A stretch of DNA of 64,000 nt from an uncultured Hellea sp. (GTDB lineage Bacteria > Pseudomonadota > Alphaproteobacteria > Caulobacterales > Maricaulaceae), in NCBI GenBank assembly GCA_905477785.1, contig CAJQGR010000008.1:4900-68899 (forward strand), read 5' to 3'. The notes beneath the pieces were generated by a model. It did not search any database. It was given only the letters and a program-made list of their open reading frames with translations, and had not been told where the DNA came from. Position numbers and translations under genes: made by a program. This document shows, piece after piece, positions 5,157 through 48,050 of the stretch. Positions within the stretch are counted from its first letter, which is position 1. The number at the start of each line of letters is the position of its first letter.

Positions 5157-5191
5157 CTTGCATTAGGAATTTTTAGGACTATTTTAGTTAA

Positions 5192-7318: not shown

Positions 7319-7338
7319 AAAATATATGCATAAATATT

Positions 7339-8097: not shown

Positions 8098-8241
8098 AGA
8101 TAGAATATAATTTAGTTAAGTGTATTATGTAAACATCCTTTTCACTTTATATAAAGTCTAGTTATTATCTAATATAATTAATAGAAAAATTTGGATAATT
8201 TAAAGTTTGACGGTATCAATCTAAAGAGCTTAAATTAATCT

Positions 8242-9729
8242 ATGGAAAATATTATAATCGCTATAGACCAAGGTACAACAAGTTCACGTACATTAGTATT
8301 TTCATTAACAGGTGAAACTTTATTTGTAGCACAAGAAGAGTTTCCTCAGCTTTATCCTAAAGATGGCTGGGTTGAACATAATCCGGAAGATATTTGGAAT
8401 AGCACATTAAACACCTTAAAGTTAGCTTATGAGTTTATCAAAGAAAATACATATGGGATTACCGGCTTAGGCATTACCAACCAACGTGAAACAACAATCC
8501 TGTGGGATAAACTTACAGGAGAGCCGATATATAATGCAATTGTTTGGCAAGATCGTAGGACTGCCAAAATCTGTGAAGAAATCAAGCTTAATTATTCTGA
8601 CAATGAGTTGAACTCAAAAACAGGTCTCCTTATTGACCCTTACTTTAGTAGTACTAAAATTTCTTGGATATTAGATAATGTCAAAGGAGCAAGAGAAAAG
8701 GCAGTTAAAGGAGAACTTGCCTTTGGAACCATTGATACTTTTTTAATATGGCGCCTTACTAAAGGTAAATCTCACTATACTGATGCCACTAATGCAAGCC
8801 GAACAAATCTATTTAATATTCATAATCAAACATGGGATAAAGACTTACTCAAATTATTCAAAGTGCCTGTAAATGTTTTACCTACAGTAAAAAACTCAGC
8901 AGATAATTTTGGACATATAGATTTTTCGATTTTAGGAGAAAGCATTCCAATATTTAGTGCTATTGGCGATCAGCAGGCAGCAGCTGTCGGTCAAAATTGT
9001 TTTGTTAAGGGGGATATAAAAAGCACATATGGGACTGGTTGTTTTGTAATTCTTAATACGGGAGAAGAATGTGTTAAATCTAAAAATAATCTCATCTCAA
9101 CAATATGTTACAGACTAAATGGGAAAGTGACTTATGCCCTAGAAGGATCAATATTTATCGCAGGGGCAGCTGTGCAGTGGCTAAGAGATGGAATTAAGAT
9201 CATCAAAACGGCATCAGATGTAGAGCCGCTTTGCGGCAAGCATAATACAAATAGGGGTGTCTACCTTGTTCCTGCCTTTACTGGACTAGGCGCTCCTCAC
9301 TGGGACCCTAATGCACGCGGTGCCTTGTTTGGTATTACAAGAGATACAGGAAGGGAGGATATAGCGAGAGCAGCAATTGAATCAACATGCTATCAAACAT
9401 ATGACTTGATAAAAGCAATGTCAGATGACGGTATAGCATCGAATTCTATGCGAGTTGATGGAGGTATGGTGGAAAACCAATGGATGGTTCAATTCCTATC
9501 AGACATACTTGACATTCCCATAGAATGCCCATCTTCAAAAGAAACAACAGCATTAGGGGCTGCTTATTTAGTAGGGTTGCAAGCTGGTATTTATAAATCA
9601 TTAGATGATATAAAAAAACATATTAGAATAAATAGACATTATTCCCCAAAAATGGGCAATGAAGAAAGAACAAAACTCCTCAACGGATGGGTAAATGCTG
9701 TAAAAAGAGTATTATCAAATTACCCTTGA
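8242..9729 (+). CDS. glpK: Glycerol kinase
   Basis: AIDQGTTSSR, ITNQRETT, VWQDRRT, TDATNASRT, GDQQAA, KSTYGTG, DGG motifs. Confidence 0.97.
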   Translation: MENIIIAIDQGTTSSRTLVFSLTGETLFVAQEEFPQLYPKDGWVEHNPEDIWNSTLNTLKLAYEFIKENTYGITGLGITNQRETTILWDKLTGEPIYNAIVWQDRRTAKICEEIKLNYSDNELNSKTGLLIDPYFSSTKISWILDNVKGAREKAVKGELAFGTIDTFLIWRLTKGKSHYTDATNASRTNLFNIHNQTWDKDLLKLFKVPVNVLPTVKNSADNFGHIDFSILGESIPIFSAIGDQQAAAVGQNCFVKGDIKSTYGTGCFVILNTGEECVKSKNNLISTICYRLNGKVTYALEGSIFIAGAAVQWLRDGIKIIKTASDVEPLCGKHNTNRGVYLVPAFTGLGAPHWDPNARGALFGITRDTGREDIARAAIESTCYQTYDLIKAMSDDGIASNSMRVDGGMVENQWMVQFLSDILDIPIECPSSKETTALGAAYLVGLQAGIYKSLDDIKKHIRINRHYSPKMGNEERTKLLNGWVNAVKRVLSNYP

Positions 9730-9835
9730 ATGATAGAAAGACAAAATATCGCAAAAAATAGTCAGTCATTTAATATGAATCTAAAAAAGAATATGATAAA
9801 GAAATGTTCAATCAAACGAAATAGAACAACATTAC

Positions 9836-11347
9836 ATGCTTCCTGATTCAAACATTAAAAACATAGTTATTGTGGGCGGAGGTACTGCAGGGTGGATGAC
9901 AGCTGCGGCTATATCGCGCCTGCTTAACCACCCAGAGATTAAAATAAATTTGATCGAGTCAGATACCATTGGCACAGTTGGAGTTGGCGAAGCAACAATA
10001 CCGCATTTAAGATTCTTTAATCAATTACTTGGTTTGCATGAAGATGACTTTGTGAAGAAAACTAATGCTACTTTTAAATTGGGTATTGAATTCGTCAACT
10101 GGGATAAAATTGGAAAAAGTTATATTCACCCCTTTGGGCCATATGGGGTGCCAATGGGAGGCTTGCGGTTTCACCATTACTGGCTGAGACAAAAACAGAT
10201 GGGAAGCCAAATTCCAATTGATGATTATAATTTACAAATAATGGCAGCTAAAGCAGGTAAATTTCATAGACCACAGAATATAAAAAAATCGCCACTCAGC
10301 ACTATAGATTATGCCTTTCATTTTGACGCTACACTATATGCAAAATACATGCGAGAATTCTCAGAAAAAAATGGAGTTAATCGCATAGAGGGTAAAATTG
10401 TCAAATGTCATCAAAATTCTAAAAACGGTTTTATTGAAAACGTACAACTCGAAAATGGCCAAATAATACAGGGAGATTTATTTTTTGACTGCTCCGGCTT
10501 TAGAGGATTGTTAATTGAGCAAACATTAGAGACTGGATATAGTGACTGGTCTAATTATTTACCCTGCAACAGTGCAGTAGCTCAAGCAAGTGAAAAAGCT
10601 GAAGATCCAATACCATACACAAAAGCCACAGCTAAAGAGGCTGGTTGGCAATGGCGTATTCCTTTACAATCGCGAACAGGTAATGGACATGTCTATTGTA
10701 ACGATTATATTTCTGATGAGGAGGCCTTGAAAAGCTTACATAAAGGCATGGATAGTAATCCAATTGGCATTCATAAACAGTTACGGTTTAAAACTGGAAT
10801 CAGAAAAAAAACTTGGAATAAAAATGTTATTTCATTAGGATTAGCAGCCGGTTTCTTAGAGCCTTTAGAGTCTACTTCAATCCATCTTATTCAAACTGCA
10901 ATAGCTCGTTTAATGACAAATTTTCCCGATAAACACTTCAATGAAGCAGATATAAATTATTATAATCAAAGGACTCTACTAGAATATGAACAAGTCAGAG
11001 ATTTTTTAATACTACATTATAAAGCAACCGAACGAGACGATACTCCATTTTGGAATTATTGTAGAAATATGCAAATACCAAATACTCTAAAAGAGAGAAT
11101 GAATATTTACATGGAAAACGCGAGACTTTATCGTCATGATAACGAATTGTTTGGCGACGCTAGCTGGTTTGCAGTTATGCATGGACAAAATATGCATCCA
11201 CAAAGGTTTCATCCAAATGCTAATATAATGCCTGATGCTGAATTAGATAAACGTATGTCTGAAATCCATAAAACCTGGGCGGCTTGCTTGGATACATTGC
11301 CAACTCATCAAGAATACATTGATCAGCACTGTAAATCAAATATCTGA
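9836..11347 (+). CDS. Flavin-dependent (tryptophan-halogenase-like) protein 1
   Basis: VGGGTAGW, VGVGEAT, ATFKLGIEFVNW (PrnA K79-equivalent Lys), GWQWRIP (WxWxIP), GFLEPLESTS. Confidence 0.93.
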   Translation: MLPDSNIKNIVIVGGGTAGWMTAAAISRLLNHPEIKINLIESDTIGTVGVGEATIPHLRFFNQLLGLHEDDFVKKTNATFKLGIEFVNWDKIGKSYIHPFGPYGVPMGGLRFHHYWLRQKQMGSQIPIDDYNLQIMAAKAGKFHRPQNIKKSPLSTIDYAFHFDATLYAKYMREFSEKNGVNRIEGKIVKCHQNSKNGFIENVQLENGQIIQGDLFFDCSGFRGLLIEQTLETGYSDWSNYLPCNSAVAQASEKAEDPIPYTKATAKEAGWQWRIPLQSRTGNGHVYCNDYISDEEALKSLHKGMDSNPIGIHKQLRFKTGIRKKTWNKNVISLGLAAGFLEPLESTSIHLIQTAIARLMTNFPDKHFNEADINYYNQRTLLEYEQVRDFLILHYKATERDDTPFWNYCRNMQIPNTLKERMNIYMENARLYRHDNELFGDASWFAVMHGQNMHPQRFHPNANIMPDAELDKRMSEIHKTWAACLDTLPTHQEYIDQHCKSNI

Positions 11348-11452
11348 TCAACATAATAATTTTTAATCAAACCCGTATAGCATAAGCACTATTCGTTCAT
11401 TAGTTTTGTTCATTATTTTTATGATCTTAATCTATTACTCATAAAATTTTAC

Positions 11453-11481
11453 AAAAAAAATGGAGGGACAAGCCCTCCATT
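11453..11481 (-). terminator. Rho-independent terminator of the TonB-dependent receptor gene
   Basis: Stem ATGGAGGG-ACAAG-CCCTCCAT (11460-11480) next to an A8 run that reads as a U-tract on the minus strand, about 20 nt after the stop. Confidence 0.85.
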
Positions 11482-11501
11482 ATTCATTAATAATTTTTAT
11501 A

Positions 11502-14500
11502 TTAGAACTGATACCTTAGACCAACTCTAATACGTCTATCTCCAACAAAACTAGTTCTCCCGAAGCGTTGACCATCAGCAGAAATTTGCTGCGATGCCTT
11601 AGCCTTTGTATCTAGAATATTGGCGACCTGGACACGGAACTGCAAGTTATCATTAAAGTCATACTTTGCAGATGCATCAAGATAACCTCTTTCCTCCTGG
11701 ATAATAGGAGCGCCTGTTACATAATCACGATACGAGCTCAAATACTCTGACCTCCAGTTATATGCTAGTCTAAATTCAAACTGCTCATCTTGATATATAC
11801 CAATCAAGTTAGCAGAGTGATCAGATAGGCCTAAGAAATCCTGCACACCAAAACGATATATTCTTTCGAATGAGTCAGGAATACCATCGTTATTTGCATC
11901 TGCAATCGCGGCTGGTGGGTTAGTCTTAGCCTCAATATAAGTATAGTTAGCTTGCAATCCTAAGTTTGAAAATAAACCAGGCAGATCATCAAAGAACTGA
12001 GTATAGGCAACTTCAAATCCTTGAATTTCAGCTTCATCTTGGTTTAGATCACCATTAAATACAACAGGAACTTCTACACCATCCAGTGTTTCGGTACCAA
12101 TAGTTTGCGAAGCATAGACTATATTGTTTTTGATATTTTTCTTGAAAAGTGAAAGTGTAAATGAGTTGTCATCACCAAAGTAATGCTCATATGACACATC
12201 AAAATTCCATGATGTAATCGCTTCAAGATCCGGGTTACCACCATAAATACTGATTTGCTGAGGTGTTATGGCTTGTATAATGCCGGGAACTACAGAGTCG
12301 TCCACATCATAACCGAGGTTAGCAACTGCAACCTGGTCAGCTCTTAACTGAGCAACATTTGGACGCGTAATACCCTTACTCACACCGAAACGAATTAAGG
12401 CTTCATCATTAAGGTTCCATTTAGCATTAAAAGACGGAAGCCAGTAATCGGTTGTATTAAACTCACCGTCAAACTGCGTATCCGCTTGGTCAAAATAAGC
12501 AACAGTTCCAGGAGCAAAAATTGCTTCATTGGCACCTGTTATATTTATATAATCAACCCCGCCTGTTCCTTTAACATCAGTAGATGTGTAACGAATACCT
12601 ACGTTACCATCAATTGACATACCATTATTAAACTCATTGCCAAAATCTAATTTTGCGTAGAAATCTTGAGTTTTCTCTTGAATTGATCCAATTAGGCCTC
12701 GGTTATCATAATCAACAACTCCATTAACACGCAGAGGCTGCCAATCACCTATTTGTGGATTACCAGCTGCATTTACTCCAGTACCAAGCAATGCTTCGCC
12801 TTGAAGCGATGAAACCCAAGCATCATAGTTTTGCAACAGAGCTCTATCTACAAATAGTACGGATGTATTGTTACCTACAACTGTGTCGCCGCGGAAGAAA
12901 TCAGTAAAATCTACTTCTTCGTATCCACCTTGAGTCAAGTCGGCCATTGGCATATATCCACCAGCCCAAGGAGCGGCAACAGATGCCCAGTTCAAACCCG
13001 CTGAGCGGTTTGTCTGGTCACGCTCAGCAATTCGCGCGCCAAATTCGATTGAGTCAAACCAACCGTCGCCGTCAAATTCATACTCAACATCGGCTTTAAC
13101 CGCGTACATGTCACCTTCATTATCATTAAACTCATCTGCTGAGAAAAGAAGGTAAGCATTTCTTGGGTCGTTGAGAGCGTCTGTTGCTGATGCCTGACCT
13201 CCTGTTCTTGTCAAATACGGGTTACTCGCAGCGCCTATAAGCTCAACTTGCGGGTTATCCAAATCTGGGTTTATTGTGAAGTCTGAGAAGAAACGTGTAC
13301 CGCCCCAGAGACGTTCTTTTGTAAATTCAGCAGTAGTCTTGTGTGCATCAATATTGATAAACAAACGCTCAGATGGCTGCCATTTAATATTTAGTGACAT
13401 ATCATCTGTTACTGAACGATCTTTTTGGTGTATTGCAAGGTTTGTGAAATTGGCACCGTTGGAACCAGTCCAATCACGTAGGTTGTTTGAAATTACACCC
13501 GTTTCATAAAGTCCGGTAATGGAATATGTATTTTCACAAACAAAGTTTGGATCATTAGCGCCATTACATGATGGAATATCTGCAGAAAAAGGGGTAGTTG
13601 TAAACCCAGGTGCTATGTTAGTTAGGTTGCCTGGAGGGTTACCTGGGAAAAAGCTTTCACCATCTGGAAAGAATTCTAATGTTCTCTCGTCCTGGTCTAC
13701 ACTGTTTTCGATACGCGCAAATTTAGCTGTAGCTTTAAAAGTGCCATCATTATTTTGCCACTGGCCAGCTACGTAGTAACTGTCTCGGCCTCTATCAACT
13801 TCGTTTGTACGAAGCTGAAAACCACCCGGAACACCTATTAGTTCACTTGAACCTGCAGCTACAGGAATCGGAAGAAGTTGACCCACTTGGAAACCATGTA
13901 AGTCTGACTGTAATTCTGATGATGAGAATGATGCGAGTAAACCGAACTCTCCATTTGTACTATCCCAGCGGTTACTGGCGATTACGCTGTAATCTGGGCT
14001 CCACTCGTTGCGAAGGTCAGTATAAGTGCCATCTATTGATGCAGACATAAAAGATCCTGTCTTATCAAATGGCTCAAGTGAACGAAGATTAATGGTACCA
14101 CCAATACCACCTTGGATAAGGTCAGCTGAAGCGTTTTTGTAAACATCAACAGCGCCTATTAATTCTGGAGGAACAGTACCAAAATCTAAAGAACGACCGC
14201 CATTAGCAGAAAAAGCATCTCTACCATTAAATTCAGAACGTACTAAAGTAAGACCCCGAATAAGGTTGCCTCCGCCTTCAGGTGAAGGGAAGTCACCTTG
14301 GCTTCCTCCTAAACCAAAACGCTGAACAACAACACCAGGAACTCGGGCTAATGCCTCAGCAACTGATAGATCAGGTAGTGCACCAACGTCCGAAGCCGTA
14401 ATAGAGTCAACAGCTGTATCAGCATTTCTCTTGAGGTCTCTTGCAGTCTTGATAGCTTGACGAATACCCGTCGCAACTACTTCACCTTCTTCCTCTACAT

Positions 14501-14642
14501 ATGTTTCCTCTGCTGTAGCTGAAGATGTATCTTCCTGCGCATACACGGGTGACATTAAACCAAAGCTTGCAACTAATGCTGTTGTTCCCAACAACGCTAG
14601 CTTATTTAGACGCTCTACTGACGCATTAATATTAGAATTCAC
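11502..14642 (-). CDS. TonB-dependent receptor (Caulobacter/Xanthomonas carbohydrate-uptake type)
   Basis: Signal peptide, EVVATG TonB box, plug motifs DSITASDVGALPDLSVAEALARVPGV and IDVYK/GGIGGTINL, C-terminal Phe (LRYQF). GTG start with AAGGGAG RBS. Confidence 0.95.
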   Translation of the reverse strand: MNSNINASVERLNKLALLGTTALVASFGLMSPVYAQEDTSSATAEETYVEEEGEVVATGIRQAIKTARDLKRNADTAVDSITASDVGALPDLSVAEALARVPGVVVQRFGLGGSQGDFPSPEGGGNLIRGLTLVRSEFNGRDAFSANGGRSLDFGTVPPELIGAVDVYKNASADLIQGGIGGTINLRSLEPFDKTGSFMSASIDGTYTDLRNEWSPDYSVIASNRWDSTNGEFGLLASFSSSELQSDLHGFQVGQLLPIPVAAGSSELIGVPGGFQLRTNEVDRGRDSYYVAGQWQNNDGTFKATAKFARIENSVDQDERTLEFFPDGESFFPGNPPGNLTNIAPGFTTTPFSADIPSCNGANDPNFVCENTYSITGLYETGVISNNLRDWTGSNGANFTNLAIHQKDRSVTDDMSLNIKWQPSERLFINIDAHKTTAEFTKERLWGGTRFFSDFTINPDLDNPQVELIGAASNPYLTRTGGQASATDALNDPRNAYLLFSADEFNDNEGDMYAVKADVEYEFDGDGWFDSIEFGARIAERDQTNRSAGLNWASVAAPWAGGYMPMADLTQGGYEEVDFTDFFRGDTVVGNNTSVLFVDRALLQNYDAWVSSLQGEALLGTGVNAAGNPQIGDWQPLRVNGVVDYDNRGLIGSIQEKTQDFYAKLDFGNEFNNGMSIDGNVGIRYTSTDVKGTGGVDYINITGANEAIFAPGTVAYFDQADTQFDGEFNTTDYWLPSFNAKWNLNDEALIRFGVSKGITRPNVAQLRADQVAVANLGYDVDDSVVPGIIQAITPQQISIYGGNPDLEAITSWNFDVSYEHYFGDDNSFTLSLFKKNIKNNIVYASQTIGTETLDGVEVPVVFNGDLNQDEAEIQGFEVAYTQFFDDLPGLFSNLGLQANYTYIEAKTNPPAAIADANNDGIPDSFERIYRFGVQDFLGLSDHSANLIGIYQDEQFEFRLAYNWRSEYLSSYRDYVTGAPIIQEERGYLDASAKYDFNDNLQFRVQVANILDTKAKASQQISADGQRFGRTSFVGDRRIRVGLRYQF

Positions 14643-14735
14643 TATTTTCTCTCCCTTATTGCCAAAAAGGCATACTTCTTTGTGAAGTAATAATTGCAGT
14701 TAATTTATATAACTTTATTAATACTTAAGCGTAAT

Positions 14736-14751
14736 TTGACAGCGCTGTCAA
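14736..14751. promoter_or_regulatory. LacI-type operator, copy 1 (TTGACAGCGCTGTCAA)
   Basis: Perfect 16-bp palindrome with an AnCGnT centre, in the divergent receptor/halogenase intergenic region. The same core recurs at 19446-19461. Confidence 0.8.
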
Positions 14752-14940
14752 TTACCTTTCATTAAATATTAGTTGCTATAAGATGACAGATTTATGGAAA
14801 TCATTTTTAATAAGTATTGATATCAATGCGCGCATTTGGCACGTTGTAAATCTAAACTAAAAGATAACCTATGAATTCAATTTTGATTGTAAATACATAA
14901 CGCAACAGCCCAACAACATCCAGTACAAGGAGCAAATGTT

Positions 14941-16443
14941 TTGAAAATTGAGAAAATTTGTATCGTGGGCGGCGGCACAGCGGGGTGGATGTCAGCAGCT
15001 GGTTTATCTAATAAATTCAGTGATTTAGGGATATCTATAGAACTCGTAGAGTCAGATAAAATTGGTACAGTAGGCGTCGGAGAGGCCACCCTTCCACATA
15101 TAAGGTACTTTAATAATTCTTTGGGAATAAATGAAAAGGATTTTATGCTGGCTACCCGAGCTACATTTAAACTGGGAATAGAATTTTGCGATTGGGGCAA
15201 AATTGGAGACCAATATGTGCATCCCTTTGGTGACTACGGAATACCTATTGATAACATTGAATATCATCATTTTTGGTTAAGACTGTTGCAGAAAGGGCAC
15301 AAGTCTAGACTTTGCGATCACTCTTTTCCAGTCTTAGCAGCCGAATCTGGGAAATTCCAACACCCGCAAGGTGATAACAATGAAATTGGCTCTAACTTTG
15401 GGTATGCATATCAATTTGATTCGGGCCTTTATGCTAAATTTTTGAGGAAATATTCTGAGGCTAGGAATGTCATAAGAACAGAAGGCCGAGTTACAGAAGT
15501 TCTCCAAAACCATGAGAACGGAAACATCACCTCGATACTATTGGAAGACGGGTCTACGATTGAAGCAGATATTTTTATAGATTGTTCAGGTTTCAGAGGC
15601 CTACTTATAGAGCAAACACTAAAGACAGGTTATGAGGACTGGAGTAACTGGCTCCCTTGTAACAAAGCCGTTGCCGTTCAATGTGAACAAGAAGGGCCTA
15701 GCCTTCCCTACACCAGGGCAACAGCTAGAACAGCAGGATGGCAATGGCGTATACCGCTTCAGCATAGAACAGGTAATGGATATGTATACTGGGATAAATA
15801 CATTTCAGATGATGAGGCAACACATCAGCTACTGAGCACATTAGAAGGAAGGGCAATAACAGAGCCAAAACAGCTTTTCTTTAAAACAGGGAAAAGAAAA
15901 AAATTATGGCAAAAAAATGTAATAGCGATTGGTTTGTCAGGGGGGTTCATGGAACCCTTAGAATCCACTTCAATTCACCTTATTCAAGAGGGTATAACCT
16001 CACTAATAGAGCTCTTTCCTGATAAATCTTTTCCTGAAAGCGATATAGAAGAGTACAATCGCCGTATGAATTTAAACTTTGATAGAGTTCGTGATTTCTT
16101 GCTTCTGCACTATGTAGCAACGCAGCGAGATGATAGTGATATGTGGAACTATTTTCGCAATATGACCTTACCATCAAGCCTAAAAGATAAAATCACAGCG
16201 TGGAACAATAGAGGATATTTAACTAAATACGAACACGGCGTATTCCACCCACCCAGCTGGTTGGCAGTGATGGCGGGTCAAAATTTAATGCCAAAATCTT
16301 ATGATATTAGGGCAAATCGTATCGATTATAATATCATTAAATCAAAATTAGACTCCATAAGAAATGACAATAGAATAGCTGTTAAAAATACACCGGAGCA
16401 TGCTTCATATTTACAAGAATATGGCGCTAGCATAGTTAAATAA
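14941..16443 (+). CDS. Flavin-dependent (tryptophan-halogenase-like) protein 2
   Basis: VGGGTAGW, ATFKLGIEFCDW, GWQWRIP, GFMEPLESTS. TTG start with AGGAG 8 nt upstream. Confidence 0.93.
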   Translation: MKIEKICIVGGGTAGWMSAAGLSNKFSDLGISIELVESDKIGTVGVGEATLPHIRYFNNSLGINEKDFMLATRATFKLGIEFCDWGKIGDQYVHPFGDYGIPIDNIEYHHFWLRLLQKGHKSRLCDHSFPVLAAESGKFQHPQGDNNEIGSNFGYAYQFDSGLYAKFLRKYSEARNVIRTEGRVTEVLQNHENGNITSILLEDGSTIEADIFIDCSGFRGLLIEQTLKTGYEDWSNWLPCNKAVAVQCEQEGPSLPYTRATARTAGWQWRIPLQHRTGNGYVYWDKYISDDEATHQLLSTLEGRAITEPKQLFFKTGKRKKLWQKNVIAIGLSGGFMEPLESTSIHLIQEGITSLIELFPDKSFPESDIEEYNRRMNLNFDRVRDFLLLHYVATQRDDSDMWNYFRNMTLPSSLKDKITAWNNRGYLTKYEHGVFHPPSWLAVMAGQNLMPKSYDIRANRIDYNIIKSKLDSIRNDNRIAVKNTPEHASYLQEYGASIVK

Positions 16444-16445
16444 TA

Positions 16446-17936
16446 ATGAATAATTCTAACATAAAAAATATTATCATATGTGGAAATGGATTAGCTGGTG
16501 TAATAACTACAGCAGCACTGGCCAAGGCACTGCCAAAGGAAACCAAATTAACGTTAATAGATACCCTCTGCACTCACGAAAAAGATATATTTTACGGAAA
16601 TGTAACATCAACATCAACTTACGCATTTTTACTAAGTTTGGGCATAACTGAAATTGAACTATTAACCCAAAGCAACACGTCTTTTTCATTAGGAACACAT
16701 TATTTAGACTGGGGCGAGGAAAAAAATTCATGGTATCAATGCCATCATCAACCTCTACCCCTGATACAAGGAGTAATGTTTCACCACTATTTAAATCGAA
16801 TCACCGCCAAATTCCCAGAGCAATCAGCTATAGGTCCCTATATTATGTCTGTGTGTGCAGCTAATAAAGGGGTTTTTGCCCACCCATCAAAAGACCCTAA
16901 AAATCCCTTAAAAAATATAGAATATGGTTATCATTTTCATCCTGCTGAATTACGAAAAATAATAGGTAGAAAATTAGATAACTGGGATATAAATATAGAA
17001 AAAGGAAGCATAAAATCCATCGAAAAATCTAATGGAGAAATTAAATCTTTAACATTATCCAATGGCGCTAATATATCAGGTGATTTTTTTATTGATTGCA
17101 CTCAGGGTAATTTAGGAATTTATGATAAGCGTATTAATTTTGGACATAATCGTACACTCAAAGCGGTAGAGAATATTTCACCTCATAACGAGATAATCGG
17201 CTCTTGTAGAAAAGTTCATGGCAATATTGAAAAATGGAAATCACAAACATTTTTACAAGATAAACTTCAAATACTTAATATAAGTGAGATATCCAACAAA
17301 AAAGATAATGATACTGAATCACGAACTCATCACTCAACCGGTGTTACCATTACCACTGGTTTTTCTGAAAATCCCTGGATAAATAATTGTCTTAGATTAG
17401 GACATAGTGCAGCTGTATTATCACCATTAACACCAGCACCCATTATGCTTTTACAAAATGATGTTAAGAGGATGTTGGAGCTAATTCCAATTTCGCACGA
17501 TATGAAAATTGAAGCTAAAGAATATAACCGCCGTTTCACAGAGGATTATATTCACGCATCTACATTCGAGAGTGCATTTCAACCCGCCCAGACCATTATA
17601 AAAAAAGAAAGCTATGAAAACAAAATTGAAGAACTAATTTATGATAAACTTAAAAATAAAATAATGCAATTTAAGAGTAGAGGCATTGTTCTGCAATATG
17701 ACCTTGAACCATTCAACAATGAGGACTGGATCCAGATACATTTGGGTATGAAACGCATACCAAAAAGGTATGACGCATTAGCAGATAGGCTCGATGAAAC
17801 TCAGCTCATAGAAACACTAAAAAACATCAAAAAAAATAATTTTATAATATCAGAAAAAATACCCCCACTTAACAAATACATCACAGGATTGATAAAATAT
17901 CTCAGGAAGCAGAATGACAAAGTCCAATCAAAATAA
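16446..17936 (+). CDS. Degenerate tryptophan-halogenase-like protein 3 (predicted catalytically inactive)
   Basis: Full length and collinear with its neighbours (ICGNGLAG, YGYHF, GDFFIDCT). FKLGI is FSLGT, WQWRIP is WKSQTF and FLEPLES is VLSPLTP. Confidence 0.8.
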   Translation: MNNSNIKNIIICGNGLAGVITTAALAKALPKETKLTLIDTLCTHEKDIFYGNVTSTSTYAFLLSLGITEIELLTQSNTSFSLGTHYLDWGEEKNSWYQCHHQPLPLIQGVMFHHYLNRITAKFPEQSAIGPYIMSVCAANKGVFAHPSKDPKNPLKNIEYGYHFHPAELRKIIGRKLDNWDINIEKGSIKSIEKSNGEIKSLTLSNGANISGDFFIDCTQGNLGIYDKRINFGHNRTLKAVENISPHNEIIGSCRKVHGNIEKWKSQTFLQDKLQILNISEISNKKDNDTESRTHHSTGVTITTGFSENPWINNCLRLGHSAAVLSPLTPAPIMLLQNDVKRMLELIPISHDMKIEAKEYNRRFTEDYIHASTFESAFQPAQTIIKKESYENKIEELIYDKLKNKIMQFKSRGIVLQYDLEPFNNEDWIQIHLGMKRIPKRYDALADRLDETQLIETLKNIKKNNFIISEKIPPLNKYITGLIKYLRKQNDKVQSK

Positions 17937-19431
17937 TATAAAAAATATAGTTATTGTAGGCGGAGGCTCAGCGGGCTGGATGACAGCTGCCGCTTTATCA
18001 AGCATGTTAAGCCCTAATAATGTAAATATTACACTGATTGAGTCAGAACAGATTGGCACTGTGGGAGTTGGAGAGGCAACAATTCCGGATATGTTAAATT
18101 TCAATGCTATGCTGGGGATTGATGAAGCTGAGTTTTTAAAAGCAACAGATGGAACATTTAAACTGGGAATAGAATTTAACAACTGGGGTCGCAAAGGCGA
18201 CTCATATTTTCATCCCTTCGGTAATATTGGCGTAGATATGCAAGGGATTGACTTCCATCAATTTTGGCTTCGCTCTAAAGAGGGAGGCAGTACTGCAAAG
18301 TTGCAAGATTATAGTATCTGCGCAGTCGCAAGTGTCGAAAATAAATTTTCTATGCCAGATCAAAACCCAAGATCTTTATTATCTCATTTACGTTATGCAT
18401 ATCATATTGATGCAACCAAATATGCGAAATACTTACGTAATTATGCTGAATTAAGACACGTTAATCGTTTGGAAGGTAAAGTCACTCAAGTAAACCTAGA
18501 CCAAGAAACTGGAAATATAGCCAATCTTCAAATGGAAAGTAAACAAATTATAGAAGGTGATTTCTATTTTGATTGCACTGGGTTTAGGGCTTTACTGTCT
18601 GATGGAGCACTTAAGGTGCCATTTACAGATTGGAGCCACTGGTTACCTTGCGATAGCGCTCAAACTGTAGCAAGCAAACAAAAAGGAGAACTTTTACCCT
18701 ATACGAAAGCCACAGCTAAAACAGCTGGGTGGCAATGGAGAATACCCACCCAACGTAGAACAGGTAACGGGCATATTTATTCAAGTAAATTCATGAGAGA
18801 CACCGATGCAACTGAAGTATTATTAGATGGGATCGACAGTGAACTTATTGGAAACCCACGTAAAATAAGCTTTAAAACTGGTTGTCGTAAAAATTTATGG
18901 AATAAAAACTGTATTTCCATTGGTTTATCAGCAGGCTTTTTAGAGCCATTGGAGTCAACTTCGTTATATCTCATTCAAGTGGGTATTAGTAAATTTATAT
19001 CTCTATTTCCGACAACTGAAGTTTCAGAGGTGGTGAGAAGCGAATATAACAAACAGATGTTAAAAGAATTTCATCAAGTTCGTGATTTTATTATATTGCA
19101 TTATAAAGCAACAGAACGGGATGATAGTGAATTTTGGAATTATTGCAGAAATATGAGTGTTCCGGACAGCTTAAGTGCCAAAGTAGAACTTTTTAGAGAA
19201 GCAGGTAGAGTATTTAGATATGATGATGAATTATTCTCGAAGCCTAGCTGGATCGCAGTTTGCTTAGGGCAGAATATAATACCAAAGAACATTGACCCCA
19301 TAATTTCCTCATTACCGTTTAATCAAGTGCAGCATAGTCTCGACTCCATGCAAAATGCCATGAAAGTTAGTGTAGATAAAATGAAAACTCATGAAGAATT
19401 TATCAAGCATTACAATGCCAGCTCTATATAG
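17914..19431 (+). CDS. Flavin-dependent (tryptophan-halogenase-like) protein 4
   Basis: VGGGSAGW, GTFKLGIEFNNW, GWQWRIP, GFLEPLESTS; overlaps the previous gene by 23 nt. Confidence 0.93.
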   Translation: MTKSNQNNIKNIVIVGGGSAGWMTAAALSSMLSPNNVNITLIESEQIGTVGVGEATIPDMLNFNAMLGIDEAEFLKATDGTFKLGIEFNNWGRKGDSYFHPFGNIGVDMQGIDFHQFWLRSKEGGSTAKLQDYSICAVASVENKFSMPDQNPRSLLSHLRYAYHIDATKYAKYLRNYAELRHVNRLEGKVTQVNLDQETGNIANLQMESKQIIEGDFYFDCTGFRALLSDGALKVPFTDWSHWLPCDSAQTVASKQKGELLPYTKATAKTAGWQWRIPTQRRTGNGHIYSSKFMRDTDATEVLLDGIDSELIGNPRKISFKTGCRKNLWNKNCISIGLSAGFLEPLESTSLYLIQVGISKFISLFPTTEVSEVVRSEYNKQMLKEFHQVRDFIILHYKATERDDSEFWNYCRNMSVPDSLSAKVELFREAGRVFRYDDELFSKPSWIAVCLGQNIIPKNIDPIISSLPFNQVQHSLDSMQNAMKVSVDKMKTHEEFIKHYNASSI

Positions 19432-19442
19432 CTTATTTTAGA

Positions 19443-19464
19443 TATTTGACAGCGCTGTCAAATA
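19443..19464. promoter_or_regulatory. LacI-type operator, copy 2 (TATTTGACAGCGCTGTCAAATA)
   Basis: Perfect 22-bp palindrome about 60 nt upstream of the ATG at 19523. It contains TTGACA (19446-19451), with TATAAT at 19467-19472. Confidence 0.8.
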
Positions 19465-19522
19465 CTTATAATTACAACAACATATAGTTTTTGTTGCTTT
19501 GATTACGGATAGGATTTTAAAT

Positions 19523-20203
19523 ATGAGTAAACTTCGTTTAATTCTAATATTATCTCTGACTAGTTTTTTACCCGCCCAAAGTGAAGACATAGGCTCTATC
19601 GAAGAAATAATAACAACAGGAACTATTCAAACTGACCCAGCAATGTCGGCTTGGCGTGCTGGGGATTTTGCCACTGCTGAAATTGAATTTAAACAAAATG
19701 CTTTTTGTGCATTAAGGGTTGAACGTAACTTCATTTCAGGGCTTGAGGGAGCCAGAGACAGTACAATACGCTCTGATGTTGGAACAGATATTGATCTTCC
19801 CGCCCAACCATCAGGCGGCTTAGGAGGTGCAGTTGTAGCACCAACGACACAACCTGTAATACCTAAGGTTCAGCTCAATTCATCGGATTTTAGAAATAAA
19901 GATAATGAAGGAACACGTACATGCGAAGATAGGGGTTTCCAAATTTACATGATGGGTATGTCACAACTAAAGCTTGGAAAGCGTGATGAAGCCAAAGCAA
20001 CACTTTTAAGATCAACAGGGTTAAGAAAAAACTTATATGATGCGCATTTCAGGTTGAGTTTAATGGAATACCAAGACAACAACCTCAAAAAAGCGAATGA
20101 ACACTATAAAAAATTAAAAAAACTGGGGTCAAAATGTAAAAAATGTGTGGCAAAAAAAGAGATTGTGGCACAAATTAAATACCTTGAAAACCTTCTCGGA
20201 TAG
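19523..20203 (+). CDS. Secreted hypothetical protein with C-terminal TPR-like helices
   Basis: Signal-peptide-like N-terminus (MSKLRLILILSLTSFLPAQS), EEIITTG motif, helical repeats (YMMGMSQLKLGKRDEAKATL, DAHFRLSLMEY), CKKC near the C-terminus. AGGA RBS before ATG 19523. Confidence 0.65.
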   Translation: MSKLRLILILSLTSFLPAQSEDIGSIEEIITTGTIQTDPAMSAWRAGDFATAEIEFKQNAFCALRVERNFISGLEGARDSTIRSDVGTDIDLPAQPSGGLGGAVVAPTTQPVIPKVQLNSSDFRNKDNEGTRTCEDRGFQIYMMGMSQLKLGKRDEAKATLLRSTGLRKNLYDAHFRLSLMEYQDNNLKKANEHYKKLKKLGSKCKKCVAKKEIVAQIKYLENLLG

Positions 20204-20237
20204 AACCTAAAAAAATTTAAACACATAAAGGAATAAT

Positions 20238-20834
20238 ATGTTAAACCGAATATTTATAACGATATTTTCTTTTGCTCTTTTAATATTTGGAGCAAACATA
20301 ACTTCTTCTGCCGATGAAATGAATAGCTCAAGTGATCAGAGAGCATTTCCGTTTTTAGTCAGTAGTCTAAATTTTGACTGGGTAACCTACGGGCCAGACA
20401 AAAGAGAAAAAATAGTGGAATCAGAAGGTGCTCCAAGCGGAATGGCCTACAGGGTTACTGTAAGAAAGAAAAAACCTAACTCTTGGGACATAGCAACACG
20501 TAATGATATGGTAAAAGATATCAAAAAAAATGATATCATAGTTGTTTCTTTCTGGGCCAGAGCAGCCAAACCTCAAAAAGGGAAGGAAAAAGGCGATATT
20601 TTAGTCGCATTACAAAGAAATATAGAACCTTATGACTCTGTCATTGAAGAACGTATTGCGCTCGATAAAGAATGGAAACTCTATTACCTCACAGGAAAAG
20701 CTAACCGTGACTATGCAGCTGAAAGAACTGAGTGGAACTATAACCTAGCTTTTGCCAGACAAACTGTTGAGCTTGCGGAGTTTTACGTTACAAATATAGG
20801 CCCTGATGGGGACCCAGAACAATACATGCCATAA
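20238..20834 (+). CDS. Secreted stand-alone carbohydrate-binding module (CBM4/9/22-like beta-sandwich)
   Basis: Signal peptide, then PNSWDI, VSFWARA, EPY, LDKEWKLY pattern typical of CBM_4_9-like domains. No catalytic domain. Confidence 0.65.
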   Translation: MLNRIFITIFSFALLIFGANITSSADEMNSSSDQRAFPFLVSSLNFDWVTYGPDKREKIVESEGAPSGMAYRVTVRKKKPNSWDIATRNDMVKDIKKNDIIVVSFWARAAKPQKGKEKGDILVALQRNIEPYDSVIEERIALDKEWKLYYLTGKANRDYAAERTEWNYNLAFARQTVELAEFYVTNIGPDGDPEQYMP

Positions 20835-20874
20835 TATACTGCTTTACCAGTATCAAAAATAATTTAGGTTATAT

Positions 20875-21513
20875 ATGACACTTATATTCTATGATTACAG
20901 TAAGGCGCCTAGCCCTAGGCGGGCTAGAATTTTTTTAGCTGAAAAAAACGTACCACATAAAACTGTTGAAATTAATCTCATGGCAAATGAGCAAATGGGA
21001 GATGCATTCCGTAAAATTAATCCTGATTGCACTGTTCCTGCATTACAGCTTGAAGATGGAAAAATCTTAACTGATAACGCCTCTATCGCAGCTTATCTCG
21101 AGGAAATTTATCCAGAGCCCCCCCTGTTAGGCACTACACCCTATGAAAAAGCTGTTATAGCATCCTGGCAATCGAAGATAGATCATGAGTTTGGTATGGC
21201 AGTTGCTAGTGCTTTGCGAAATGCTAACCCTGCAATGAAAGATAGATCGCTGCCAGGAAAACATAATTACAAGCAAATACCAGAACTATCCATAAGAGGA
21301 CTTAAGCAGATAGACAACTTTTTAAATTTTCTAGAAACACACCTCCAAGAGAAAGAATTTATTTCGACAGGAAAATTCACAATAGCAGATATCTCTGCAG
21401 CATGCGCCTTAGATTTTGCGAGGGTTGTTAAAAAGAAAGCCAACGAAAATATGCACCCTAATATAATACGGTGGCGGTCAGGTCTTTCCCAAAGAAAGAG
21501 CTTTAACATTTAA
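20875..21513 (+). CDS. Glutathione S-transferase family protein
   Basis: APSPRRARIFLAEK, INPDCTVPALQLEDG, FTIADI motifs. Confidence 0.92.
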   Translation: MTLIFYDYSKAPSPRRARIFLAEKNVPHKTVEINLMANEQMGDAFRKINPDCTVPALQLEDGKILTDNASIAAYLEEIYPEPPLLGTTPYEKAVIASWQSKIDHEFGMAVASALRNANPAMKDRSLPGKHNYKQIPELSIRGLKQIDNFLNFLETHLQEKEFISTGKFTIADISAACALDFARVVKKKANENMHPNIIRWRSGLSQRKSFNI

Positions 21514-21538
21514 TCAACAGCATGCAGTGTAGAATGCG

Positions 21539-21615
21539 TGGTAGGGGGAGAGAGACTTGAACTCCCGACCAACCCGTTATGAGCGGGTGGCTCTAACCAA
21601 CTGAGCTATCCCCCC
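21539..21615 (-). tRNA. tRNA with CAT anticodon, most likely tRNA-Ile2 (lysidine-modified)
   Basis: The reverse complement folds as a 77-nt cloverleaf: acceptor GGGGGGA/TCCCCCT, anticodon arm ACCCG-CTCATAA-CGGGT, TTCAAGT T-loop, encoded CCA. Not fMet (no C1-A72 mismatch, no GGG/CCC stem). Elongator Met cannot be fully excluded. Confidence 0.9.
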
Positions 21616-21710
21616 ATTTGGCAATCGGTCGCTCTATAGCGCGGCTTTATGTATAGGGAAAGAGCAATTTTACAATCTAAGTAAGATTAATACAATTATT
21701 TATAATTTAT

Positions 21711-22931
21711 TTAAGTATTAAACTGATTTTTATTTTTTATATGCTGCTCCACGATAATAGTAGCAGCAATCTGACCTAATAGATTTACACAGCTTCGCAT
21801 CATATCTGGAATACGGTCTATCCCAAGAATCAAACCTAAGCCTGATACTGGAACTCCTATTGTGGCCAAAGCTGGTGTCATTGTCACCACACCTGAGGAT
21901 GGAACTGGTGCTACTGTAAGTGACACGAGGAACGTTGCAAAAATTATTCCTCCTAAAGAGCTTGTAACTAAACTTACATCATAAATATGCGCTAGAAATA
22001 TTATTGCAGCACCCTGAAACAAAGCACTCCCTGGTCTATAAATCGATGCACCCAGAGGTATTAGCATGTCTGATATTTGCTTTGAAACATTGAGCTTACT
22101 AACTGTATGCTCAAGGGAAACTGGAATAGCTGCAGCAGTGCTTGTAGTGGAAAAGGCAATCGAAGCGGGGCCAAAACTACCTTTAAAAAATGTAGACATA
22201 TTCATTTTTACATAAATTATTAGCATAGGTAAAAAAACAAATGCTAGTAGCAAAAAAAGTCCAATCAATACGCATAGTATAAAGACTATCAGACTTTGGA
22301 TAAGGCTCCATCCCAGCAAAGCTGTAGAGGACGCAACCAATCCAAATACCCCTAAAGGTGCTAGATAAAGTATCCACCATACAAGCTTTATTAAAGCCTC
22401 ACTAAAATCTTCGGCTGCTAATACCATTCTCTTTCTTTTTTCACTAGCAAGCGTTCCCGTCGCAGCAGCAAGCAAAGCAGTAAATACTATCAGCGGAAGT
22501 ATTTGACCATTAGATGCTGCAGAAAATGGATTAGCGGGAATCAGACTTACAATAAAATCTACAGCAGATTGTAATTCAGGTACTTGACTGTAAACATTCG
22601 TTGGCATTTTAATCTCAGGTATAAACCGCAATCCCAAAAACATAACACCCATCCCTATAACGATAGCGGGTAAAAGTGTTCCACAGTAGAATGTAAGAGT
22701 AGCTACCCCAATACTACCTAATTTTTTTGGATCCCCCAAGCGGGCTATGCTGGTAAATATTACAGAAACCACAAGTGGAATCACCACCATTTTTACAGCA
22801 TTTATAAATATCTGACCTAATGGCGTGGAAGTCTTTGCTACTGTGTGCAAAATTTCATTTCCAGTCATAGATGCGCCTAAGCCGACGATCAAACCTAATA
22901 TTAATCCTAATGAGATCAGTTTATTTAACAT
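21711..22931 (-). CDS. Dicarboxylate/amino acid:cation symporter (DAACS, GltP-like)
   Basis: FINAVKMVVIPLV, IPANPF, ILPLIVF, FSTTSTAAAIP (HP1), APVPSSG (HP2), IDRIPDMMRSCVN (TM8). Confidence 0.92.
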   Translation of the reverse strand: MLNKLISLGLILGLIVGLGASMTGNEILHTVAKTSTPLGQIFINAVKMVVIPLVVSVIFTSIARLGDPKKLGSIGVATLTFYCGTLLPAIVIGMGVMFLGLRFIPEIKMPTNVYSQVPELQSAVDFIVSLIPANPFSAASNGQILPLIVFTALLAAATGTLASEKRKRMVLAAEDFSEALIKLVWWILYLAPLGVFGLVASSTALLGWSLIQSLIVFILCVLIGLFLLLAFVFLPMLIIYVKMNMSTFFKGSFGPASIAFSTTSTAAAIPVSLEHTVSKLNVSKQISDMLIPLGASIYRPGSALFQGAAIIFLAHIYDVSLVTSSLGGIIFATFLVSLTVAPVPSSGVVTMTPALATIGVPVSGLGLILGIDRIPDMMRSCVNLLGQIAATIIVEQHIKNKNQFNT

Positions 22932-23029
22932 AGAACAACTTTCTTAAATCATCATCAGTTTAACAAAATTACAAAGAATTTTTCAATTCGAGGTTTAATT
23001 TCAAATTTCCAATTATTTTCATACGCCTT

Positions 23030-23078
23030 CATTACAAAATCATTGCATAAGGTCTATGCAAAAGTGACGCTTGTAATG
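23030..23078. repeat. Interrupted inverted repeat in the divergent symporter/tesB promoter region
   Basis: CATTACAA-aa-TCA-TTGCATA-aggtc-TATGCAA-aag-TGA-cgc-TTGTAATG: 18 paired positions. Confidence 0.6.
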
Positions 23079-23105
23079 TTTAATAAAAAAATAGAATATA
23101 TAATA

Positions 23106-23990
23106 ATGTTTACATTAAAAGAATTTTTATCAAAAATGCATGTTGAGGAGATTGATACCTACCTTTTTACTGGTGAAGCGCTCAGAATGGGCCTTCCAAG
23201 AGTTTTTGGAGGACAAGTTCTAGGGCAAGCTTTAAATGCAGCAGTCAGAACGGTTGATCCTGTTAGGCGACCACACTCATTGCATGCTTATTTTCTTCGC
23301 CCAGGGGACTTAAATTCACAGATAATTTACGAAGTTGACCCAATACGAGACGGAAAAAGTTTTTCGACACGTCGAGTCGTAGCAAAACAAAAAGGTAAAG
23401 CTATTTTTAATGCATCTCTTTCATTCCAAAAAATGGAGAATGGTTTAAACCATCAAATGGATTTACCTTCGCACATTCCAGGACCAGATAACATCTTACC
23501 GGACATTGAACACATTAAAAAACTTTCTAAAAATAATCCAAAGGTAAATATTGAAACATTAAGACAGCACAGCCTTATCTTTGATAGTAAAGTCGTAGAA
23601 ATACGAACACCAGAGTTATACAAGGTAGTTGAACCTGGGGAGTATGATCCTGAATTTGGGTTTTGGTTTAAATTCAGTGATGACATTGGAGATGACCCTA
23701 TAACACATAGGACTCTTCTAGCTTTTATTTCTGATAAAGCACTCATGTCTGTTGGCTTGATGCCTCATACTTGGAATAGAGATACGCATAACTTAATTGG
23801 AGCAAGTCTTGATCATGCAATGTGGTTTCATTCGGAAATTAGAGTTAATAAATGGATTTATTATCATATTGATAGCCCAAGAGCCATGAGGGCTAGGGAT
23901 TTTGGACGAGGTAGCTTTTACTCGCAAAATGGAGAGCTTATAGCATCTACAGCCCAAGAGGGCCTAATCCGTATCGTAAAAAATAGATAA
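23106..23990 (+). CDS. tesB: Acyl-CoA thioesterase II
   Basis: VFGGQVLGQAL, HSLHAYFLRPG, RDGKSFSTRRV, ASLDHAMWFH, STAQEGLIR. Start moved to ATG 23106. Confidence 0.93.
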   Translation: MFTLKEFLSKMHVEEIDTYLFTGEALRMGLPRVFGGQVLGQALNAAVRTVDPVRRPHSLHAYFLRPGDLNSQIIYEVDPIRDGKSFSTRRVVAKQKGKAIFNASLSFQKMENGLNHQMDLPSHIPGPDNILPDIEHIKKLSKNNPKVNIETLRQHSLIFDSKVVEIRTPELYKVVEPGEYDPEFGFWFKFSDDIGDDPITHRTLLAFISDKALMSVGLMPHTWNRDTHNLIGASLDHAMWFHSEIRVNKWIYYHIDSPRAMRARDFGRGSFYSQNGELIASTAQEGLIRIVKNR

Positions 23991-24016
23991 ATTTAAATTT
24001 TCTTGGTGAAGAGATA

Positions 24017-45397: not shown

Positions 45398-45694
45398 CTA
45401 ATCCTCTCCCAATGCCACTCGAACTTGCCTTATAACTCGGTCTAACTCTTGGGTGGTCTCGTCAGCCAATATGCCAAACTCTTTTTCACGAGCTAAGAAA
45501 TCTTTCTCTTTCGCATAACTTGCATCAAGCTTAGCAGCAAGTGCTGCCCTGTCTGCACTCATGGCATCTGATTCTTTTTTTAAAGCTTCCAAACGACTCA
45601 CTTTATCTAATAGAGAGTCGATAGAACCCCCTAATTTACCAATTGCTGACTTTAATCTGTCAGATGCTTCTTTTATGTCAGCGCTGTCATTCAT
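45398..45694 (-). CDS. DUF4164-like coiled-coil protein
   Basis: Short coiled coil (DRAALAAKLDA) upstream of zapA, as in other alphaproteobacteria. Confidence 0.7.
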   Translation of the reverse strand: MNDSADIKEASDRLKSAIGKLGGSIDSLLDKVSRLEALKKESDAMSADRAALAAKLDASYAKEKDFLAREKEFGILADETTQELDRVIRQVRVALGED

Positions 45695-46856: not shown

Positions 46857-46861
46857 TTCAA

Positions 46862-48049: not shown

Positions 48050-48050
48050 T

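Follow-up and report, generated by a model that had tools for sequence, protein, structure and literature searches.

Why would a TonB-dependent receptor (TBDR) be accompanied by a whole set of flavin-dependent halogenase genes? The question is raised by a locus at positions 9836–21513 of the 64,000-nucleotide stretch of DNA analyzed here (the window), located on contig C8 of an uncultured Hellea sp. genome. The locus contains the receptor gene, four genes with the halogenase fold (hal1 to hal4), and the genes of a secreted tetratricopeptide repeat (TPR) protein, a stand-alone carbohydrate-binding module (CBM) protein and a glutathione S-transferase (GST) (table 1). The best overall explanation, for which the balance of probability is even, is that the locus forms the uptake part of a LacI-repressed laminarin/glucose regulon with an integral halogenase set. 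Laminarin is a major carbon pool of the ocean.

The genome is a metagenome-assembled genome (MAG) of 1.83 Mb (1,831 kb) in 92 contigs, with 37% G+C and an estimated completeness of 97%. It belongs to the family Robiginitomaculaceae, together with Litorimonas, Algimonas, and Robiginitomaculum, and its closest public records are Hellea sp. MAGs. The organism is common in marine metagenomes, with near-identical sequences in numerous runs that stem from different studies and years.

The listing of open reading frames and the profile searches (Pfam and TIGRFAM) of the locus placed the receptor, the four halogenase-fold genes, and the TPR, CBM, and GST genes exactly where the original prediction had them. 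The same searches of positions 9836–21513 found no gene for a glycoside hydrolase (GH), a nonribosomal peptide or polyketide synthetase (NRPS/PKS) or a flavin reductase, as that prediction had also held, but GHs and a Flavin_Reduct gene exist elsewhere in the genome. JmjC, cupin, and SapC domains similarly had no match in any gene of this interval. The claim of four halogenase-fold genes stands with respect to the family, since all of them match PF04820, but not with respect to function, since hal3 lacks the catalytic Lys and the WxWxIP, GEATIP, and EPLEST motifs.

The locus is connected to sugar metabolism by a palindrome. In detail, the 14-mer TGACAGCGCTGTCA is perfect at positions 14737–14750 and 19447–19460, that is, ahead of both transcription units, where a LacI-type palindrome had been predicted. 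Seven perfect copies are present in the 1.83 Mb of the genome against approximately 0.01 expected by estimate, and thus their presence is not due to chance. Two of the remaining five flank a LacI-family gene on contig C69: one lies immediately before zwf, the other in the spacer that separates the divergent LacI and glk genes. On the same contig, a copy is located upstream of an operon of an SSF symporter and a GH3 with an ExoP-type C-terminus. The last two are found upstream of a GH16 gene on C19 and on C10, between a second gap gene and an amine-oxidase-like gene, 20 bp upstream of the start of the former. Copies with one mismatch precede PPDK and the gap-pgk-fba genes, and a second GH3 gene is separated by a related site, TGACAACGTTGTCA, from a second LacI gene, which is followed by an MFS sugar transporter. 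As in LacI regulons, the palindrome has a central CG and is repeated before functionally related genes and beside a regulator gene.

The operator is also conserved among relatives. In the spacer between the TBDR gene and hal2, aligned across six species, it is the sole invariant block. In 11 related loci it is placed 68–135 bp upstream of the TBDR start, and sites equivalent to the second operator of the locus (O2) are found with one or two mismatches in five loci (L035, L037, L039, L040, and L059).

The simplest reading of this distribution is that TGACAGCGCTGTCA marks a laminarin (beta-1,3-glucan)/glucose regulon, with the LacI gene flanked by two operators as its presumed repressor. Based on the copies before gap-pgk-fba and the second gap gene, the same regulon appears to reach central glycolysis. 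The earlier view of the locus as sugar-regulated, and not as a natural-product cluster, agrees with an operator that is common to GH16, GH3-ExoP, SSF, glk, zwf, gap, pgk-fba, and PPDK. It can also be sharpened, as these partners support a beta-1,3-glucan of the laminarin type, or glucose, as the likely imported glycan.

The receptor shows all features of the TonB-Xanth-Caul class, namely the TIGR01782 score, the Plug (PF07715) and barrel (PF00593) domains, a signal peptide ending in PVYA before QE, and a TonB box (EVVATGIRQ). It is the single TBDR detectable in the genome (phmmer with the TBDR and a hidden Markov model of 30 TBDRs on the six-frame translation, E ≤ 10), a count that depends on the estimated completeness of the MAG and on a profile of one receptor class. 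One TonB-ExbB-ExbD cluster was detected (C10:47733-51298), preceded by the gene of a large MotA/ExbB-family protein and followed by that of a TPR protein. The GH16 and GH3 enzymes carry lipoprotein signal peptides, and the CBM and TPR proteins carry ordinary ones.

Read from this anatomy, a pathway in which laminarin is cut and imported, and glucose is released, taken up and consumed, is very probable. The locus would represent the outer-membrane uptake part of the regulon in a streamlined planktonic Hellea-type alphaproteobacterium. Laminarin would be cut by the lipoprotein GH16, and the oligosaccharides would be imported by the single, very highly expressed TBDR through the lone TonB-ExbBD system. 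The secreted CBM4/9 and TonB-box TPR proteins would assist in the envelope, whereas the lipoprotein GH3 of the ExoP type would free the glucose. This would then be imported by the SSF symporter and consumed through glk, zwf, and the glycolytic genes. All these units would be joined by TGACAGCGCTGTCA, with the operator-flanked LacI as the presumed repressor.

Within this scheme, the halogenases would be an integral and ancient companion of the receptor class, acting as a translationally coupled cytoplasmic set in the order hal2-hal3-hal4-hal1 (the quartet). The genes hal2 and hal3 are separated by 2 nt and hal3 overlaps hal4 by 23 nt, and none of the four halogenase-fold proteins has a signal peptide. 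Three of the four have the full set of catalytic motifs. The PF04820 scores of hal1, hal2, and hal4 are 622, 605, and 600 bits, respectively, against 178 bits for hal3 (cut-off 21), and the three are 50% identical to each other. They keep the GxGxxG motif (as GGGTAGW or GGGSAGW), GVGEATxP (GVGEATIP in hal1), the catalytic Lys in FKLGIEF, GWQWRIP, and EPLESTS. Their matches to the structurally known enzymes 9luq (Pseudoalteromonas sp. L11), BrvH (Brevundimonas sp. BAL3, 6frl), and Xcc4156 (Xanthomonas campestris, 6y1w) range from 440 to 516 bits; the best of them are 9luq for hal1 (516 bits, followed by BrvH with 475 bits) and for hal4 (491 bits), and BrvH for hal2 (478 bits).

On balance, hal1, hal2, and hal4 seem to perform real halogenation chemistry, as judged by their conserved motifs. 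The predicted reaction would use FADH2, O2, and a halide to form hypohalous acid, which would give a Lys-haloamine and finally a substitution on an electron-rich ring; FADH2 would be supplied in trans by the Flavin_Reduct gene on C7. As a tentative suggestion, with the probability somewhat against it, the substrate could be a small cytoplasmic molecule of the indole or phenol type during glycan use. The four genes occupy about 6 kb, that is, about 0.33% of the genome, and such an expense in a streamlined genome argues for their importance in the main way of feeding. A fifth halogenase-like gene (C64:2395-3999, 534 aa), on a contig of 6 kb, has the more canonical motifs GWVWDTP and FIEPLESTG.

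The case of hal3 is different. Its GxGxxG motif is kept (CGNGLAG), but the catalytic Lys is replaced by Ser (FSLGTHY), WxWxIP by WKSQTF, and EPLEST by SPLTPAP, and GEATIP is gone. These changes are shared by all its orthologues. A complete halogenase fold is seen in the AlphaFold model of hal3 (pLDDT 76), with TM scores of 0.78–0.80 to BrvH, Xcc4156, and 9luq. The losses are thus an indication of a member that retains the fold but is not a functional halogenase. In comparison with the sister MAG, dN/dS is 0.126 for hal3 and 0.033, 0.054, and 0.053 for hal1, hal2, and hal4, respectively, values which are approximate because dS is near saturation. The value of hal3 is similar to those of the M16 peptidase (0.113) and the CBM protein (0.137). 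Therefore, hal3 is under purifying selection. Its role as a noncatalytic subunit that forms hetero-oligomers with the active paralogues, as their scaffold or activator, is plausible, with a probability slightly short of even. The possibility that hal3 is the missing flavin reductase was set aside, as a second nucleotide-binding motif is missing and GxGxxG is absent from distant members of its group. One hal3-type protein is labeled "tryptophan 7-halogenase" at NCBI.

The maximum-likelihood tree of 72 proteins shows four groups, which follow the gene position with three label changes, the minimum possible. The hal3 group is monophyletic (support 99/92) with branches three to five times longer, and a hal3-type gene is always located directly after a hal2-type gene. 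From the tree and the gene order, the four halogenases are ancient orthologous groups in a fixed order. Distant members of the hal3 group, from Parasphingorhabdus and a Sphingomonadaceae MAG, have also lost GxGxxG and remain right after a hal2-type gene. In the tree, hal1 groups with the hal1 genes of loci in which the quartet is convergent with the TBDR gene, whereas hal2, hal3, and hal4 group with those of loci with a divergent quartet. Two ancestral receptor-halogenase loci appear to have been merged into the present layout as the genome was reduced. In Parasphingorhabdus flavimaris (L064:8451-11479), a hal2-type gene and its dead paralogue stand among housekeeping genes (a folP-like gene, a DNA methylase, and a threonine dehydratase), with no TBDR within 10 kb. 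The pair of an active and a dead gene may be the minimal unit.

When the single sequence of hal3 was used as query no related loci were found, but the scan with an alignment of hal3 orthologues succeeded and retrieved 37 loci. The original prediction depended on orthologues keeping the neighborhood, and this was the case. The order hal2-hal3-hal4-hal1 is present in 30 of the 37 loci, from Caulobacterales and Sphingomonadales, and a TBDR orthologue is adjacent in 29. The TPR and CBM genes come next in 10–12 loci and a GH3-ExoP gene is adjacent in nine. The GST gene is found in two out of the 37 and, from this distribution, is a lineage-specific addition.

The layouts of relatives bring the hydrolases next to the receptor. 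For instance, a Hellea MAG shows glk-LacI-GH3-CBM-TPR-hal1-hal4-hal3-hal2 with a divergent TBDR gene. Litorimonas sp. WD9-15 has zwf-LacI-GH3-TBDR with a divergent quartet-TPR-CBM unit, and a member of another family of the order has GH16-TBDR-hal-x-hal-GH3-SSF. Hydrolases are located together with the receptor in six loci (L025, L027, L029, L031, L032, and L039) but not in the present genome, where GH16 is on C19 and GH3-SSF on C69. The locus thus has no glycoside hydrolase because this genome has dispersed it over several contigs. Without the Hellea-type operator, the module is further present in Sphingomonas, Sphingomicrobium, Asticcacaulis, Maricaulis, and MAGs labeled Alcaligenaceae. Hellea and Algimonas also show a second type of locus, in which the quartet converges on a TBDR gene that is itself followed by a GMC oxidoreductase, the small subunit Gluconate_2-dh3, and an MFS transporter. 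This shows that the quartet accompanies receptors with different downstream chemistry. In one related locus, a DUF6445 protein is encoded beside the quartet.

The TPR protein carries a motif like a TonB box. Its mature N-terminus reads IEEIITTG right after the signal peptide, and the motif D-E-[IV]-[IV]-x-x-G is found in nearly all of 40 aligned homologues, with a nearly invariant Asp. The TonB boxes of the cognate receptors, DE[IV][IV][AVT]TGIRQ, follow the same pattern. In the AlphaFold 2 model, a disordered N-terminus is followed by a helical hairpin, and a Gly/Pro linker leads to a TPR domain of three repeats. The protein has four conserved Cys and neither plug nor barrel, and the Foldseek search with its model gave generic TPR matches only. 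The family is narrow, with 121 database clusters that are unnamed or have a generic TPR-type annotation. Small periplasmic proteins with a TonB box are not known to us as a described class.

The expression of the locus was viewed through the assembler depth of contigs from environmental RNA runs, which gives a rough picture and is a poor measure of expression. All genes of the locus are covered by such contigs. Four runs labeled metatranscriptomic (X3, X25, X26, and X27) show flat depth over genes and spacers at window positions 5000–24999 and contigs of up to 71 kb; they are DNA-like and thus uninformative on expression. Coverage is uneven in four other RNA runs. In three of these the TBDR depth is 30–160, and across the four the halogenase genes show depths of 1–7 and the neighboring housekeeping genes of 0–3. 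The depth of glk, GH3, and SSF is about 5–10 where that of the TBDR is high, and about 0–3 in the run with low TBDR. An RNA contig with the TPR gene, the CBM gene, and the start of the GST gene (19444–21091) begins at O2, and another (19161–19740) indicates read-through from hal4 into the TPR gene. The operator suggests that the halogenases are co-induced with the receptor.

The partnership of TonB receptors and halogenases is not new. Iyer, Abhiman, de Souza, and Aravind (NAR 2010, PMC2938197) described JOR/JmjC genes with one to three tryptophan halogenases, SapC, and a TonB-class receptor in alpha- and gammaproteobacteria, and proposed a halogenated siderophore-like product. Thus, to call the locus a candidate uncharacterized system, as was done originally, overstates its novelty. 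In accordance with that neighborhood, a TonB receptor is here accompanied by cytoplasmic halogenases in which the Rossmann fold and the catalytic Lys are maintained, in a sporadic and cassette-like distribution. On the contrary, JmjC and SapC are absent, four paralogues (one of them dead) stand in fixed order with a TonB-box TPR protein and a CBM protein, and regulation and neighbors point to glycan uptake and not to a siderophore. What is new is the combination of four paralogues, one of them a conserved dead subunit, with a TonB-box TPR protein and a CBM protein, without SapC and JmjC, in a genome of one receptor.

The genes hal1, hal2, and hal4 share all motifs with BrvH, Xcc4156, and the enzyme of entry 9luq. 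BrvH and Xcc4156 show weak bromination of indole and count as orphans with respect to their native substrate (PMC5945002, PMC7336383); the literature also mentions a second halogenase gene beside brvH and difficulties in FAD loading. In contrast to these enzymes, which were studied singly and outside their gene context, the proteins of the window are known from sequence and stand in a context of receptor, operator, and three paralogous partners, one of which is dead. In metatranscriptomes, a halogenase gene and a TBDR gene of one Colwellia cluster showed upregulation under one and the same treatment. In the literature searches, no flavin-dependent halogenase with a dead partner came up, nor any paper that ties these halogenases to laminarin or polysaccharide utilization loci, or that explains the PDB entries 9luq, 9ltb, or 9lu2.

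Blanvillain and colleagues reportedly described proteobacterial loci for TonB-dependent carbohydrate utilization (CUT) in 2007. The present system resembles CUT and laminarin loci in its receptor of the Xanthomonas/Caulobacter class, its LacI-family regulator, its GH16 and GH3, and its inner-membrane sugar transporter. It differs in that its parts are placed on at least five contigs, tied solely by the operator, and in that the regulon includes gap, pgk, fba, PPDK, and zwf. By analogy only, hal3 may be compared to prozymes such as that of the trypanosome AdoMetDC (PMC5201418), where a dead paralogue under purifying selection is encoded with active relatives.

Several points weigh against the explanation of an uptake regulon with an integral halogenase set. 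Laminarin has no aromatic group, and thus the pathway supplies no obvious substrate for a halogenase. There is no operator copy in front of hal1, and the pairing of repressor and operator is itself deduced. The halogenase depth in the RNA runs is low and does not clearly track the TBDR depth across the four samples. The single-receptor count would change with any receptor that the assembly or the one-class profile misses. In larger relatives several paralogous quartets coexist, each tied to its own TBDR, and a receptor-specific role fits this better than a generic small molecule does. Finally, the hetero-oligomer is a proposal only. In its full form, the four paralogues would be an obligate hetero-oligomer with hal3 as activator or scaffold, the halogenation would be needed by TonB-dependent glycan uptake and would have a receptor-linked protein or the imported ligand as its target, and the TPR protein would join the same machine as a second client of TonB. 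This is improbable as a whole, but the obligate hetero-oligomer, if true, would explain the near-inactivity of BrvH-type enzymes studied alone. These enzymes are under development as biocatalysts and their native role has been a puzzle since the report of the partnership in 2010. A genome with one receptor, one TonB system, and a single operator tying the receptor to laminarin use is a clean test case.

Among the alternatives, the one that survives best is that of the original prediction, in which an aromatic aglycone or metabolite borne by the glycan is halogenated, or a halogenated signal or defense compound is made during feeding on algal glycans. It is supported by the intact catalytic motifs and by the in vitro bromination of indole and related compounds by relatives; in addition, the operator is common to glycan genes, and the GST, which in principle is able to handle electrophilic halo-organics, shares an RNA contig with the TPR and CBM genes. 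The in vitro activities, however, are very low, the GST accompanies just two of the 37 loci, and the locus has no exporter, precursor pathway, or tailoring gene. A streamlined genome of 1.83 Mb is also an unlikely home for dispensable secondary metabolism, and the cassette is also present in bacteria of freshwater and soil, habitats with little bromide. This alternative is unlikely, although a sizeable share of probability remains with it.

A second alternative, clearly less probable than the former, is that the halogenase-fold proteins no longer halogenate and have another flavin-dependent, structural, or regulatory role, such as redox or flavin sensing. It fits with hal3, which is out of catalysis yet conserved, with the distant members of its group that have no FAD motif, and with the poor binding of FAD to Xcc4156 crystals (PMC7336383). 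It fits less with hal1, hal2, and hal4, in which very strong purifying selection maintains the Lys, WxWxIP, and EPLEST; flavin binding alone does not require these halogenation-specific motifs, and BrvH and the Xanthomonas enzymes do halogenate in vitro.

Of about the same low probability, or slightly lower, is a maturation of the uptake machine, in which the halogenases would tailor a receptor-linked protein or peptide (the TBDR, TPR, or CBM protein) before its export. The link of each quartet to its own TBDR in larger relatives would be explained, as would the persistence of the partnership in both GH3/GH16 and GMC-oxidoreductase loci, whose receptors differ in their glycan partners. A JmjC enzyme from a clade of peptide modifiers is encoded in the sister form of the cassette (PMC2938197), the BrvH pocket is open and its activity on free indole very low, and the great excess of TBDR RNA over halogenase RNA fits a ratio of substrate to enzyme. 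No halogenated outer-membrane protein is known, however, and the strongly conserved N-terminal region of these TBDRs (TonB box and start of the plug) has no Trp, Tyr, or His. In addition, a cytoplasmic modification would have to precede the Sec export of an unfolded chain, and the pair of hal2 and dead paralogue in Parasphingorhabdus has no receptor nearby.

The siderophore-like compound of Iyer et al. (2010), derived from an amino acid and reimported by the TonB receptor, follows from the described partnership of one to three halogenases with a TonB-class receptor (PMC2938197), but is very improbable and was rejected here, given a receptor of the TonB-Xanth-Caul class which adjoins hydrolases and sugar transporters in relatives, a LacI-type operator common to GH16, GH3, glk, and zwf, and the absence of NRPS, JmjC, and SapC from the locus.

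Table 1. Positions of the genes, putative operators, and other elements of the locus in the window, with two further entries from outside the locus, the last of them from related loci.
Feature	Position	Strand or placement	Remarks
hal1, BrvH-type flavin-dependent halogenase, all catalytic motifs	9836..11347	+	PF04820 E=6e-187; convergent with TBDR
Strong intrinsic terminator right behind the TBDR stop codon	11459..11481	-	Inverted repeat, 9-bp stem, 5 G-C pairs, then T run
TBDR, TonB-Xanth-Caul class	11502..14642	-	TIGR01782 550 bits, cut-off 310; Plug and barrel
Putative operator O1, 16-bp perfect palindrome TTGACAGCGCTGTCAA	14736..14751	TBDR/hal2 divergent gap	TTGACA hexamer on each strand
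hal2, BrvH-type halogenase, all catalytic motifs	14941..16443	+	PF04820 E=8e-182; first gene of the quartet
hal3, catalytically dead halogenase paralogue	16446..17936	+	PF04820 E=4e-52 only
hal4, BrvH-type halogenase, all catalytic motifs	17914..19431	+	PF04820 E=4e-180
Putative operator O2, 22-bp perfect palindrome TATTTGACAGCGCTGTCAAATA	19443..19464	hal4/TPR gap	Precedes TPR-CBM-GST unit
Secreted TPR protein, TonB-box-like motif	19523..20203 (alternative start 19499)	+	Weak Pfam TPR matches
Secreted stand-alone CBM4/9 carbohydrate-binding protein	20238..20834	+	PF02018 E=4.9e-8; signal peptide
GST	20875..21513	+	GST_N and GST_C domains
tRNA-Met (CAT), 3' border of locus, right after GST gene	21539-21615	-	Rfam
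One-mismatch operator copy TGTCAGCGCTGTCA upstream of gap-pgk-fba (45843-49088)	45676..45689		Outside locus
Second locus type, gene set	L055:17992-21348; also L053, L056		Resembles glucoside 3-dehydrogenase route

Searches with Rfam over the locus found the tRNA-Met only, with no riboswitch or leader in the region of about 190 nt upstream of hal2. The scan for promoter consensus gave fewer matches than in shuffled sequence and is thus uninformative. Upstream of hal2, a second and partly conserved block, TCAATGCGCGCATTTGGCACGTTGTAAA (window positions 14823–14850), is common to the sister Hellea MAG and partly to Litorimonas cladophorae; it contains TGGCAC without a proper sigma-54 -12 element. 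The flanks of the locus consist of housekeeping genes, with uvrB, a fatty-acid hydroxylase, and glpK on the one side, and tRNA-Met, an SDF symporter, an acyl-CoA thioesterase, the M16 peptidase, rpoD, and dnaG on the other.

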